Positions 37,148 through 40,266 of a stretch of DNA of 64,000 nucleotides are shown here, in pieces (the stretch's first letter is position 1; the number at the start of each line of letters is the position of its first letter). This DNA is from Candidatus Aminicenantes bacterium (GTDB taxonomy: Bacteria; Acidobacteriota; Aminicenantia; Aminicenantales; JAFGAV01). Below the pieces are notes generated by a model, which saw only the letters and a program-made list of their open reading frames with translations, was not told the DNA's origin and searched no databases. The position numbers and the translations under genes were made by a program. The stretch lies in assembly GCA_963705895.1 (NCBI GenBank), contig OY970122.1, positions 588,744 through 652,743 on the forward strand. The letters run 5' to 3'.

Positions 37148-37307
37148 GGGAGCTGCCGGGCGTCCATCATCGTAGAGGGTTTCCGGGTTCAACCGGATTC
37201 AGCGATCACTCACGCCGGAATTAACGTCCGATTGGCGCAGGATTGCAGGCAGGGCAACGTCGAGACTCGCACTCTGACCTGCTCAACTCCAACCTGTCTG
37301 CGAACAA

Positions 37308-37343
37308 ATTGACTTTCAATGAAAAAGTAATTACAGTTATTAC
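37308..37343 (+). promoter_or_regulatory. putative sigma70-type promoter with palindromic operator upstream of the mazEF-fusion gene
   Basis: TTGACT - 17 nt - TACAGT, only about 7 nt before the ATG (leaderless-like). Overlapping palindrome GTAATTAC AG TT ATTAC, typical of TA autoregulation operators. Confidence 0.35.
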
Positions 37344-37997
37344 ATGAAATCGACTGAGCTCAAAGTCTCTCGTATCGGAAACTCCCGCGGGGTCCGGCTT
37401 CCTGCGGCGTTGTTAAAACGATATCGCATCGGAGCTGCTGTCCTCATGGAGGAGACGAGCGAGGGTATTTTCCTGCGGCCCGTCGGCCCTGTGGTGGAGA
37501 AGCTTTCATGGGAAGATACGGTCCGCGAGATGGCGGCCGGCCGCGAAGACTGGGGCGATTGGGATGCGGTGGACGCGGACGGATTGGAAAATATTCTGTG
37601 GGCAACCGAAGGCGCCGGGAGAATAACGGAAAAGAAAGCCTGGTATCGGTCGGCTCGGCGAATCAAGCAAGAGACCGTTCTGCGTTATGAGATTCGATGG
37701 GTTTCACTGAATCCGACCCAGGGTGCGGAAATGGGGAAGAAACGTCCAGCGGTCATCGTCAGTCTGGACGCGCTCAATGAAAGATTACAGACCGTGACAA
37801 TCTGCCCTCTGACCAGCCGGTTACATCCCTCCTGGCGCTCCAGGTTGCAGGTCCGATGCAATCGACAAGAGGCCGAAATCGCAGTGGACCAGATAAGAAC
37901 TATCGCCAAATCTCGGCTGGGAGCCAAAATCGCCGCGTTGACAGAAGACGAAGCCTCCGCGTTGAGGCGGATTATCACCGAAATGTATGGCGAGTGA
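37344..37997 (+). CDS. fused MazE-like antitoxin (SpoVT/AbrB) and MazF/PemK-like endoribonuclease toxin in a single ORF
   Basis: N-terminal MKSTELKVSRIGNSRGVRLPAALLKRYRIGAAVLMEETSEGIFLRPV... with acidic EDWGDWDAVDADGLENILW tail (MazE/PemI-like). C-terminal ...RYEIRWVSLNPTQGAEMGKKRPAVIVSLDALNERLQTVTICPLTS... (MazF/PemK-like). No stop or canonical internal start between the two halves. Confidence 0.65.
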   Translation: MKSTELKVSRIGNSRGVRLPAALLKRYRIGAAVLMEETSEGIFLRPVGPVVEKLSWEDTVREMAAGREDWGDWDAVDADGLENILWATEGAGRITEKKAWYRSARRIKQETVLRYEIRWVSLNPTQGAEMGKKRPAVIVSLDALNERLQTVTICPLTSRLHPSWRSRLQVRCNRQEAEIAVDQIRTIAKSRLGAKIAALTEDEASALRRIITEMYGE

Positions 37998-38015
37998 CCC
38001 GAAGCCCCGTTCAAA

Positions 38016-38043
38016 ATCTTGACATCTTTACAAACAGAGTGAT
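38016..38043 (+). promoter_or_regulatory. near-consensus sigma70 promoter (TTGACA - 16 nt - TGnGATAAT) upstream of the integrase remnant
   Basis: TTGACA at 38016-38021 and extended -10 TGATAAT at 38036-38043; a TTG start with GGGGGA RBS follows at 38072. Confidence 0.3.
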
Positions 38044-38071
38044 AATCTCCATCTATATTAACGGGGGATAT

Positions 38072-38206
38072 TTGAAGACAAGACAGGAAGTAGTTTTCGT
38101 CGCGGAACAAAAAGCCGCTTATTCCGCCCGGCCTCAAAGGTTGCTCGATCGACTTCGCGAGGCGTTCCGCATCCGACATTATAGCCGCCGTACGGAAGAG
38201 ACCTAA
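38072..38206 (+). pseudogene. tyrosine recombinase / integrase N-terminal fragment (IntI/XerD-like), truncated after about 44 codons
   Basis: (M)KTRQEVVFVAEQKAAYSARPQRLLDRLREAFRIRHYSRRTEET* matches the conserved integrase N-terminus (IntI1: ...[24 protein letters not shown]...). The rest of the recombinase is absent in all frames downstream. Confidence 0.4.
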
Positions 38207-38326
38207 TGACCGATCGGGCACTCGTTTCACAAGCGTCTAATTCATCACATGAAGTCGCATCCGGGTTGTTATATGGATCTATGTAAACATTGTTAGCTCA
38301 ACGTAAACATTAGAGGGAGACTCTCA

Positions 38327-39490
38327 ATGACAAAGAAGACTACGCCAATCGGAAGTGAAACAGCGGCAAAGAGGGCATACCTGAAGCAATCAGATGTGCC
38401 TTCCGCTTCCTTAGAAGAAGCACTTCGAATGCCAGAGGCAATCCTCGATCATTATGCAGGAAAGGCGACTACACCATTACAGGTTGCCAAAGCCTTGAAC
38501 GTGGATCCAAAAGGCTCACAGATTCGTGTTCTTTCGGGGGCCGCAATGGCTTTTGGCCTCATCGAAGGGGGTGCGCAAGCAACTAACATTTCTGTGACCG
38601 ATCTTGCACGACGAATTCTTCGCCCTAAAGAGGAGAATGATGATCTGGCTGCAAAACGAGAGGCAGTTTTGAAACCCAGAGTTTTCGGTGATTTTCTTCG
38701 CCAATATGACGGTAATGCCTTCCCCCGTCGAGAGATCGCATTGAATGTACTCGAAGAAATGGGAGTACCACGTGAGAAGACAGAGGAGGTTCTTGAACGA
38801 ATTGATGCTAGTGCACGCTCCGTAGGCTTTATCGCGGAGATTAGGGGGAAAAATTATGTCACTCTCCAAGGAGCCGCGACTTCCATTACCGCAGATGTAT
38901 CAAGTTCCGAGATAAGTCCAGAACCCGAGCAAGAGAAACTAACCGCACCGGAGATCAAGAGATTGACGATCCCCCCTCCTATCGTACAGCCGAAAGGAGC
39001 TGCACTTACTGCTGCTATCGCAGACGACCAGAGACGCCGCCGGGTGTTCATTACGCACGGTAAAAACAGAGACTTGGTAGAGCCAATTAAAAAACTCTTA
39101 GAGTATGGTGAGCTAGAGCCAGTGGTTTCTGTCGAGAAGTCATCTGTATCCAAACCCGTCCCTGAAAAAGTTCTGGATGACATGAGGGGCTGTGGAGCGG
39201 CAATTATCCACGTAGAGGTGGAGCAAATGATTGTCGACAGGGAGGGGAATGAACATGTTTTATTAAATCCCAATGTCCTAATTGAAATAGGTGCCGCCAT
39301 GGCTTTCTATGGTCGGCGGTTTATTTTATTAGTCCGGGAAGGGGTGAAACTGCCATCGAATCTTCAGGGCCTTTTTGAGGTACGGTACGGTGGCGATACC
39401 TTGGATGCAACTGCTACTATTAAGCTACTCGAAGCTATTAAAGATATCAAGAACTATGATCTCCCCACACAACCAGAGGTTGAGAGCTAA
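38327..39490 (+). CDS. two-domain protein: unknown N-terminal domain + C-terminal TIR-like nucleotide-binding domain (PF10137 / CAP12-like); candidate defence effector
   Basis: AGGGAG RBS. C-terminus RRVFITHGKNRDLVEPIKKLLEYGELEPVV...NPNVLIEIGAAMAFYGRRFILLVREGVKLPSNLQGLFEVRY matches the VFIVHG...LGLEPI...RQNVIFELGYFIGKLGR.RV..L...GVE.PSD..G pattern of the TIR-like family. Markedly lower GC than flanking genes. Confidence 0.55.
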   Translation: MTKKTTPIGSETAAKRAYLKQSDVPSASLEEALRMPEAILDHYAGKATTPLQVAKALNVDPKGSQIRVLSGAAMAFGLIEGGAQATNISVTDLARRILRPKEENDDLAAKREAVLKPRVFGDFLRQYDGNAFPRREIALNVLEEMGVPREKTEEVLERIDASARSVGFIAEIRGKNYVTLQGAATSITADVSSSEISPEPEQEKLTAPEIKRLTIPPPIVQPKGAALTAAIADDQRRRRVFITHGKNRDLVEPIKKLLEYGELEPVVSVEKSSVSKPVPEKVLDDMRGCGAAIIHVEVEQMIVDREGNEHVLLNPNVLIEIGAAMAFYGRRFILLVREGVKLPSNLQGLFEVRYGGDTLDATATIKLLEAIKDIKNYDLPTQPEVES

Positions 39491-39500
39491 CTAATGAATC

Positions 39501-39526
39501 CAGCGGACGGCTTTCAGCCTCCGCTG
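39501..39526 (+). terminator. stem-loop between the TIR-like gene and the next ORF (possible attenuator/terminator)
   Basis: CAGCGGACGGC-TTTCA-GCCTCCGCTG imperfect inverted repeat 10 nt after the stop; no T-tract; followed by a strong RBS (GAGGGAGGAGG) for the next gene. Confidence 0.25.
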
Positions 39527-39557
39527 TTCCGTACGTAATGAGGGAGGAGGCCTTTGC

Positions 39558-40094
39558 ATGAGGCTATGTGCTTTTGGTGGCGTGGTTCTTGCTATGGTCG
39601 CGCTATCGGGGCAAGCGATGGAATCTCCCGCCCAGAGTCCGACGCCTGCTGAGATCAAGGCTGTGGACGCGTTCATAAAAACCCAAGAGCGACTCCGGAG
39701 CACGCAGTACGTCTCGGATAACTTGCTTGAGTTTCGCGAGGGGCGCCAGTATGCGTTTGACGAAGCCGGCGGGAGCGGCAAGACGATACTCGCTGTGCGT
39801 TATACTTTGGAGGAGGGCAACAACTGGACTCTATTCCTCGCAGCCTTTTCAAGGCCGACAATGAAGTGTCAAGCCCACGCACGGGTGGGTGGCAAGGGCT
39901 ATCGCAACGTTGATATTAGCGGGGTTAAGGGCGATATGATCTATTTGAAGATCGAATTGTACTCAACCTACGACGCTCTCTGTTGTCCCAGCGTCCCTGG
40001 CTCAACAATCTACGAACTGACCGACGATTCGCTCGTCGAAAAGGAACTTCGGGTCGACTGCGAGGGTTGGAGGCCGCCAGAGAGGCGAAGATGA
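39558..40094 (+). CDS. hypothetical secreted protein (signal peptide, 4 Cys)
   Basis: MRLCAFGGVVLAMVALSGQA signal peptide; strong RBS; low GC; no recognisable domain. Confidence 0.45.
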   Translation: MRLCAFGGVVLAMVALSGQAMESPAQSPTPAEIKAVDAFIKTQERLRSTQYVSDNLLEFREGRQYAFDEAGGSGKTILAVRYTLEEGNNWTLFLAAFSRPTMKCQAHARVGGKGYRNVDISGVKGDMIYLKIELYSTYDALCCPSVPGSTIYELTDDSLVEKELRVDCEGWRPPERRR

Positions 40095-40266
40095 ACTTTG
40101 GCTCGTCAGGCACTTGTCAAATGCTATGGAAATATTCGAATATTATAAGAAATAATAACCCAGCAAGGATAAAATGACCGGCTAACCAGGCGCAGTATCT
40201 GACCGCAAATCCACGGTGCACCATTGCGCAAGGTGAGCGTGCCGCCGACCGGACAAGAGGAATATC

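Follow-up and report, generated by a model that had tools for sequence, protein, structure and literature searches.

The toxin-antitoxin (TA) principle of type II relies on two proteins of different stability present at a variable toxin:antitoxin ratio (conditional cooperativity), and the canonical complex of the MazEF family is MazF2-MazE2-MazF2. Here we describe a locus at which these two components are joined in a single chain. It lies in a 64,000-nucleotide (nt) stretch of the genome of a Candidatus Aminicenantes bacterium (contig OY970122.1, positions 588,744 to 652,743 of the forward strand), referred to below as the window, and consists of one 217-amino acid open reading frame (ORF) in which a MazE-type antitoxin module is followed by a PemK/MazF toxin domain. 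Our preferred reading, to which we give a probability of about 0.7, is that the locus encodes a true single-chain TA system of type II, maintained in evolution, which arose from an ancestral mazEF-like operon by the gain of one nucleotide.

Toxins with a covalently attached antitoxin are known from other families. CapRel(SJ46) is reportedly an autoinhibited toxin with a covalent antitoxin domain that is activated by a phage capsid protein; its toxin is N-terminal, however, with a RelA/SpoT toxSAS fold, and it has no homology to the window protein. EzeT of E. coli, which derives from the two-gene epsilon/zeta family, carries an N-terminal cis-antitoxin and a C-terminal toxin in one chain (Rocker & Meinhart 2015; PMC4826407, PMC4803016). 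It differs in that its toxin is a zeta UDP-N-acetylglucosamine (UNAG) kinase and not an RNase, and in having neither a DNA-binding domain nor type II-style autoregulation; there is again no homology. In the engineered 'zymoxin', E. coli MazF is linked to a MazE fragment and remains inert until the linker is cleaved (PMC3281143). This protein is artificial, has another domain order, lacks an AbrB domain and contains a protease site designed into its linker. The HicA-HicB fusion Slr1999 of Synechocystis (PMC4963859) and a TA fusion of X. oryzae (PMC4861877) are thought to be fused bicistrons; both are isolated cases, described with no or very few fused homologs, whereas the fused state described here makes up large, diversified clades. 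Reviews mention that PemK domains occur in multi-domain proteins and treat natural TA fusions as rare one-offs. Our search of the full-text literature for a natural MazE-MazF fusion yielded no description, only engineered fusions and other fused TA families.

The window locus has much in common with the canonical MazEF and PemIK (Kis-Kid) systems of E. coli, B. subtilis, S. aureus and D. radiodurans: the MazF/PemK fold with Arg and Thr at the catalytic positions, an N-terminal domain assigned to the AbrB-type antitoxins, an acidic Trp-containing tail and a palindromic operator at the promoter. It departs from them in being a single polypeptide with an obligate 1:1 stoichiometry, in an extra basic extension of about 25 residues and in a predicted leaderless mRNA, and its toxin shares only about 20-30% sequence identity with characterised MazF proteins. 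Much closer are the split sister operons found in Candidatus Aminicenantes (loci L022 and L023, 81-87% protein identity to the two halves of the window's fused gene) and in metagenome-assembled genomes (MAGs) of Gemmatimonadota, Binatia and Eisenbacteria. These share with the window the operator/promoter, a 111-amino acid antitoxin with a basic extension and a 106-amino acid toxin, but consist of two ORFs with an ATGA or GTGA overlap, whereas at the window locus a base has been added and the toxin lacks a start codon.

The ORF runs on the forward strand from an ATG to a TGA, with the coordinates and the length that the earlier note on this DNA had given. Its claim that the toxin half lacks a start of its own also holds, since codons 82-129 contain no in-frame ATG, GTG or TTG. 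No hidden frameshift or stop was found at the junction in the window, and both other frames carry stops there. Residues 1-106 of the ORF form an AbrB/MazE-type antitoxin module, to which the PemK/MazF RNase domain of residues 112-217 is fused in the same frame. As one ORF with no internal start, it is not the pair of separate co-transcribed genes of a classical type II system, an arrangement that the sister operons do have; rather, antitoxin and toxin domains lie within one polypeptide, as expected of a fused TA. Public databases name such fused proteins only 'PemK/MazF family toxin'. The gene and its domains are as follows, dN/dS being the ratio of non-synonymous to synonymous substitution rates:

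37344..37997, + strand: fused mazE-mazF ORF, 217 amino acids plus TGA; the identical protein is present on an independent Logan contig, and more than 120 homologous clusters match over the full length.
37344..37493, + strand: assigned as an AbrB/MazE/SpoVT-type DNA-binding and dimerisation domain, residues 1-50, with the motif RIGNSRGVRLP; dN/dS 0.05-0.29.
37494..37601, + strand: acidic Trp-rich tail, residues 51-86 (KLSWED...EDWGDWD...DGLENILW), net charge -8, presumed to neutralise the toxin.
37602..37661, + strand: native basic C-terminal extension of the antitoxin, residues 87-106, now a tether; homologous to residues 87-106 of free-standing 111-amino acid antitoxins.
37677..37994, + strand: PemK/MazF endoribonuclease domain, residues 112-217, by Pfam, PDB MazF and Foldseek matches; dN/dS 0.05-0.22.
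37743-37745, + strand: R134, a catalytic position, aligned to the Arg of the RP of S. aureus MazF.
37812-37814, + strand: T157, a catalytic position, aligned to the Thr of S. aureus MazF.

On the opposite strand, a 181-amino acid GTG-initiated ORF (37685-38230) faces the toxin-coding half and the downstream intergenic region, and is probably a spurious shadow ORF.

The origin of the fused gene can be read from its split relatives. A tblastn comparison of the window protein with the retrieved loci gave about 20 loci where it matches one ORF and more than 50 where the match is split over two frames, with residues 1 to about 105 in one frame and residues about 107 to 217 in the -1 frame. The antitoxin of the split operons is typically 111 amino acids long and the toxin 106 (47 of 50 operons), and 111 + 106 equals 217. 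In the same 50 operons the stop of the antitoxin and the start of the toxin share bases, in the form ATGA in 27, GTGA in 22 and TTGA in one. Most relatives in other phyla are ordinary two-gene operons, and the closest genome relatives, L022 and L023, are split operons as well. When the DNAs are aligned, the window reads ...GGCGAATCAAGCAAGAGACCGTTCTGCGTTAT... where L022 reads ...TGCG-ATCGGCCAAGAAATCATGAGGCGCTAC..., the extra base, about 17 nt ahead of the former toxin ATG, shifting the reading of the antitoxin into the frame of the toxin five codons before this former start. The parts of the junction are:

37661..37662, + strand: site of the one-nucleotide insertion, CGAATC in the window versus CG-ATC in split relatives, from the alignment with split L022 and L023 and with two fused loci, L088 and L089.
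37662..37676, + strand: residues 107-111 (IKQET), formerly the last five antitoxin codons and now read in the toxin frame; they match the IGQEI of the toxin-frame translation in L022/L023.
37677..37679, + strand: codon 112, GTT (Val), formerly the toxin start (the ATG of the ATGA overlap), from the DNA alignment.

Among 16 fused DNAs, codon 112 is GTT, TTC, GTC, ATA, GCC, ATC or CTC, and a start codon in none. In the other fused groups (the main clade and the groups of P0093 and P0100), the frame switch falls within the last ~10 antitoxin codons, these sequences being too diverged to place each event. The earlier note had offered two options: that the fused toxin is real, or that a pair of genes had lost its stop and start. 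Both are true at once, because one nucleotide was inserted into an operon with an ATGA overlap and the fused state has since been conserved and selected. Among the retrieved loci are also two same-frame arrangements of the two-gene kind: at L016 (269-925) both genes are in the same frame with a TAG between them and a new ATG three codons on, and at L024-L027 same-frame pairs, likewise parted by a stop, have an antitoxin of about 80 amino acids with no basic extension.

The fused form is widely conserved. Homologs were sought among 5.8 billion proteins, with clusters from JGI, ENA, NCBI and Logan. The search returned 502 matches, of which the best 120 have 100% query coverage at 60-84% identity, 110 of these 120 being exactly 217 amino acids long. 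The earlier note had proposed looking for the same fusion in homologs; it is found in more than 120 distinct protein clusters, with pairwise identities of 56-99% and a mean column identity of 83%, and the homologs are not all two-gene systems. Conservation per column is about 86% in both folded domains versus about 60% in residues 87-112. By the Nei-Gojobori method, dN/dS between fused genes stays at the low values listed above for the AbrB and toxin domains and ranges from 0.16 to 1.65 in the bridging segment (residues 87-112), and both folded halves are under purifying selection. Because of the conserved layout, the low dN/dS and the identical protein on an independently assembled contig, the gene is neither a sequencing artefact nor a decaying pseudogene. 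Relatives were present in at least 541 genomes (one genome per species scanned), all of them MAGs, from Aminicenantes, Gemmatimonadota, Binatia, Eisenbacteria, Verrucomicrobiota, Kiritimatiellia, Armatimonadota, Myxococcota and other phyla.

The phylogeny, built by neighbour-joining only (junction masked, 74 taxa, 100 bootstraps), rejects a single origin of the fused state. All fused genes were monophyletic in 0/100 bootstraps, while the main fused clade was recovered in 84/100 and the pair of the window and P0001 in 98/100. The window grouped with P0001-P0003 and the split L022/L023 in 83/100, and a trio of 215-amino acid fused proteins was nested among split operons in 100/100. The fused state therefore arose, or reverted, more than once, and the tree together with the length differences (215, 216 and 217 amino acids) points to independent origins. 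L022/L023 represent either the ancestral split state or a reversion inside the window's subclade. The toxin frame is open for at least five codons upstream of the toxin start in 43/50 split operons (median 23.5), and since any +1 or -2 indel in this open stretch fuses the genes, the mutational target is large.

In the toxin half, PemK_toxin (PF02452) matches residues 114-214 with an E-value of 3e-24 (85.6 bits versus a cutoff of 23.1; model positions 2-108 of 109), and is matched by all 116 family members; solved MazF sequences match residues 108-205 at E-values of about 1e-8. R134 and T157 are invariant across 116 sequences that have diverged to 56% identity. We take their catalytic equivalents to be, for the Arg, E. 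coli R29 and B. subtilis R25 and, for the Thr/Ser, T52 and T48. In the full-chain AlphaFold2 (AF2) model the toxin domain has a moderate predicted local distance difference test score (pLDDT) of 73-81, and the SH3-like beta-barrel fold of MazF/CcdB is supported by Foldseek, whose top 50 PDB matches are all MazF/PemK-family toxins (best 4mzp, E=2e-8, target template modelling (TM) score 0.73). The catalytic domain is strongly constrained, from which we argue that the RNase activity is probably still in use.

The antitoxin half is best identified at the level of its family. When residues 1-112 were searched exhaustively, the matches formed 357 clusters (50% identity). Almost all are free-standing proteins 75-150 amino acids long, and just one representative has 217 amino acids. 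Pfam MazE_antitoxin (PF04014) is matched by 44/57 stand-alone relatives (best 1e-9). A profile of these relatives matches solved AbrB-fold antitoxins, namely VapB (3zvk, 5e-4), D. radiodurans MazE (7d2n, 9e-4) and E. coli MazE (1ub4, 4e-3), and hhalign aligns the family to residues 4-65 of E. coli MazE with 93% probability (E=2.5e-7). We assign residues 1-50 to the AbrB/MazE type because these lines of family-level evidence agree. Within this domain, I11, G12, N13, S14, G16 and R18 are invariant. In the AF2 monomer, residues 1-60 have a pLDDT of 29-43, a low value that is expected for an obligate dimer fold, the fold of the AbrB/MazE/SpoVT family being a swapped-hairpin beta-barrel built by a homodimer.

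The acidic tail that the earlier note had described, EDWGDWD...ILW, is indeed there and is followed by a basic segment of net charge +4. W56, W70, W73, G80 and W86 are invariant and the motif EDW(G/S)(D/E)WD...W is conserved; HMMER aligns the family's EDWS motif with TDWG of D. radiodurans MazE. From the invariant Trp residues, the acidic charge and the TDWG alignment, we infer that residues 51-86 are a toxin-neutralising tail. The following segment had been described as a basic linker of about 30 residues. Basic it is, but it is not a new linker: it is the antitoxin's own extension plus five frame-shifted codons. Free-standing antitoxins carry a basic extension of 23-26 residues with a net charge of +3 to +10, and distant two-gene relatives (L024-L027) end their antitoxin at the equivalent of W86. 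Residues 87-106 are the least conserved part of the fused protein (60% column identity), and in the fused homolog L015 (206 amino acids) the bridge is 11 residues shorter.

The gene is preceded by a promoter and an operator that are conserved across split and fused loci:

37309..37314, + strand: -35 box TTGACT (promoter scan 9/12, 17-nt spacer).
37332..37337, + strand: -10 box TACAGT, inside the operator and ending 6 nt before the ATG (promoter scan).
37327..37343, + strand: 17-bp operator GTAATTAC-A-GTTATTAC, the presumed binding site of the AbrB domain, abutting the start codon.

The operator, GTAATTACAGTTATTAC, consists of two copies of the self-complementary octamer GTAATTAC, and the consensus layout is TTGAC, 13 nt, GTAATTAC-A-GTAATTAC. 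Even when up to 3 mismatches are allowed, no other such site exists in the 64-kb window, and 0 are expected by chance. Among non-redundant related loci, split and fused and from many phyla, 75/77 have the operator and in 56/77 it adjoins the start codon; its positions 1, 2, 8, 10, 11, 16 and 17 are invariant, and in most of the 77 loci TTGAC stands at a fixed 13 nt upstream of it. The promoter and the palindrome of the earlier note are thus present and statistically supported. The gap of 7 nt that it placed before the gene does not stand, as the operator abuts the ATG and the -10 hexamer ends 6 nt upstream. The stretch from the -10 box to the ATG lacks a Shine-Dalgarno sequence. Because the conserved promoter-operator abuts the ATG, a leaderless, autoregulated mRNA is predicted; the double palindrome overlaps both the -10 box and the predicted transcription start, and it would be bound by the AbrB domain. 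In a part of the main fused clade (L005, L008-L012, L014 and L015), a leader of 29-42 nt that includes a GGAGG Shine-Dalgarno separates the promoter-operator from the ATG, and the family therefore alternates between leaderless and leadered translation.

No partner antitoxin or other small gene was found beside the fused gene in 10 genomic contexts, and its neighbours vary. The window, L088 and L089 share upstream genes for an FecCD permease and an ABC ATPase. Between L088 and the window, the flanking proteins are 98% identical and the fused TA protein just 84%; the fused protein of L089 is 74% identical. The downstream segment differs among the three, with a CAP12/Pycsar-type TIR in the window, a SEFIR/TIR_2 in L088 and no TIR in L089, and because of this difference in downstream content we place the fused gene in a variable hotspot. 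In the compared segment (window 37148-40266), L088 also has an extra 252-amino acid gene and L089 a gene of Cys/Met metabolism. Directly downstream of the fused gene in the window, 38327-39490 (+ strand) encodes a 387-amino acid protein with a C-terminal CAP12/Pycsar-type TIR (Pfam 9e-18), which PADLOC matches best to PDC-S35 (6e-12), a candidate single-gene system. A near-consensus sigma-70 promoter-like site lies at 38019-38046 (+ strand; TTGACA, 16 nt, GATAAT, 11/12), 22 nt past the TA stop. The TIR gene lies about 280 nt further downstream, and the interval would be either a long stretch without translation or taken up by a small RNA or ORF that is not annotated. At L091 (1768-3148), a 215-amino acid fused mazEF (P0093) is divergent beside a BrnT/BrnA pair, which suggests that TA modules form a small cluster there. 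The fused protein itself had no match in PADLOC.

The data above show how the gene is built and where it came from, that it is conserved and under selection, and that its operator is conserved; from there we propose the following scheme. In an ancestral mazEF-like operon, with a 111-amino acid antitoxin, a 106-amino acid toxin and an ATGA overlap, one nucleotide was added about 17 nt ahead of the toxin ATG. The antitoxin is since then translated on into the frame of the toxin, whose own start codon has decayed. The chain is ordered as AbrB domain, acidic Trp-rich tail, native basic extension serving as a tether of about 26 residues, and MazF domain. Its mRNA is predicted to be leaderless. The double-palindrome operator lies across the promoter, and the AbrB domains would dimerise on this operator to repress the promoter. 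The MazF domains would also dimerise, and would be blocked by the tail from their own chain or from the partner chain. The obligate 1:1 stoichiometry would amount to an antitoxin excess compared with the canonical 2:1 toxin:antitoxin ratio, and the RNase would be freed only if the N-terminal antitoxin part or the tether were cut by proteolysis (of the Lon/Clp type) or displaced by a trigger. Inhibition in cis, for which the tail would dock in the toxin groove, and activation by proteolysis are feasible in principle, because the engineered fusion of MazF with a MazE fragment stays inert until its linker is cut (PMC3281143).

Several points weigh against this scheme. The full-chain AF2 model (116-sequence alignment) reaches a pLDDT of 57, its AbrB domain, tail and tether all staying below 60, and is uninformative on docking; a single-sequence model of residues 51-217 (pLDDT 48.5) is likewise uninformative. 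The match of the window protein itself to PF04014 (residues 9-49, 19.5-20.9 bits) is below the cutoff of 24.7, and the hhalign alignment to E. coli MazE ends at residue 65, short of the known MazF-binding peptide. No protease site, degron or trigger was identified in the fused protein. Lastly, a fixed covalent 1:1 ratio removes the logic of differential stability, and the module may no longer be a toxin switch.

Other explanations of the locus start from the same data. Exactly one base separates the fused from the split relatives, and many of the related MAGs were assembled from long reads, a source prone to indels, so that a frameshift error in sequencing or assembly could have turned a two-gene mazEF operon into an apparent fusion by one spurious base. 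This explanation is effectively refuted: the former toxin ATG is GTT, such that correcting the frame would leave the toxin without a start codon, the identical protein occurs on an independently assembled contig, the syntenic orthologs L088 (84%) and L089 (74%) are fused likewise, and there are more than 120 fused clusters across JGI, ENA, NCBI and Logan. That two proteins are still made from the one ORF, by endoproteolysis of the tether or by non-canonical internal initiation, giving a two-component system with enforced 1:1 synthesis, would fit a tether that is poorly conserved, predicted to be disordered, rich in Arg and Lys and variable in length (206- and 215-amino acid forms exist). We hold this to be very unlikely, however, with no start codon at or near codon 112 in the 16 fused DNAs and no conserved cleavage motif in the tether.

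The two remaining alternatives concern what the fused protein does. It might be a disarmed toxin, permanently neutralised, from which MazF is never released and which is kept mainly as an AbrB-type autorepressor or anti-addiction factor. A covalent 1:1 linkage amounts to a permanent inhibitor excess, no activation mechanism is evident, and a repeated, non-monophyletic origin from a large target (43/50 operons) fits a near-neutral event. The toxin domain is nevertheless as constrained as the antitoxin (dN/dS 0.05-0.22), with R134 and T157 invariant, which would be hard to explain if the RNase were never used, and we regard this alternative as improbable. By analogy with CapRel, the protein could instead be an autoinhibited sensor that answers to a phage or stress factor by displacement, and not degradation, of its cis antitoxin, and acts in abortive infection. 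Such a role would suit the position of the gene in a variable hotspot beside TIR-domain candidate defence genes in the window and L088, its proximity to BrnTA in L091 and the divergence of the TA gene (84% versus 98% for its flanks), which suggests fast turnover. Most other contexts consist of housekeeping genes, though, the fused protein has no PADLOC match, and it shows neither an apparent trigger-binding domain nor homology to CapRel; a CapRel-like function is accordingly a distinctly improbable one. We thus continue to favour a maintained single-chain TA module.

If that is so, its significance lies first in the type II TA principles themselves: a large, selected clade of fused MazE-MazF proteins tests which of them are dispensable. 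The locus also provides a route from a TA operon to a one-gene module, in which one base is gained ahead of the ATGA overlap and a pre-existing flexible basic extension becomes the tether. Closely related fused and split pairs (81-87% identical) allow a direct comparison of toxicity, regulation and activation, and the predicted leaderless promoter-operator common to many phyla is a second directly testable feature. More speculatively, and we consider this improbable, MazEF may have been turned repeatedly by single-nucleotide frameshifts into a covalently autoinhibited, trigger-activated RNase, a natural 'zymogen' MazF. In place of differential antitoxin turnover, activation would then follow from site-specific cleavage of the tether by a protease, or from a phage or stress factor that displaces the cis tail, and the fused gene would be a one-gene sensor-effector in the defence hotspots of uncultured Aminicenantes.

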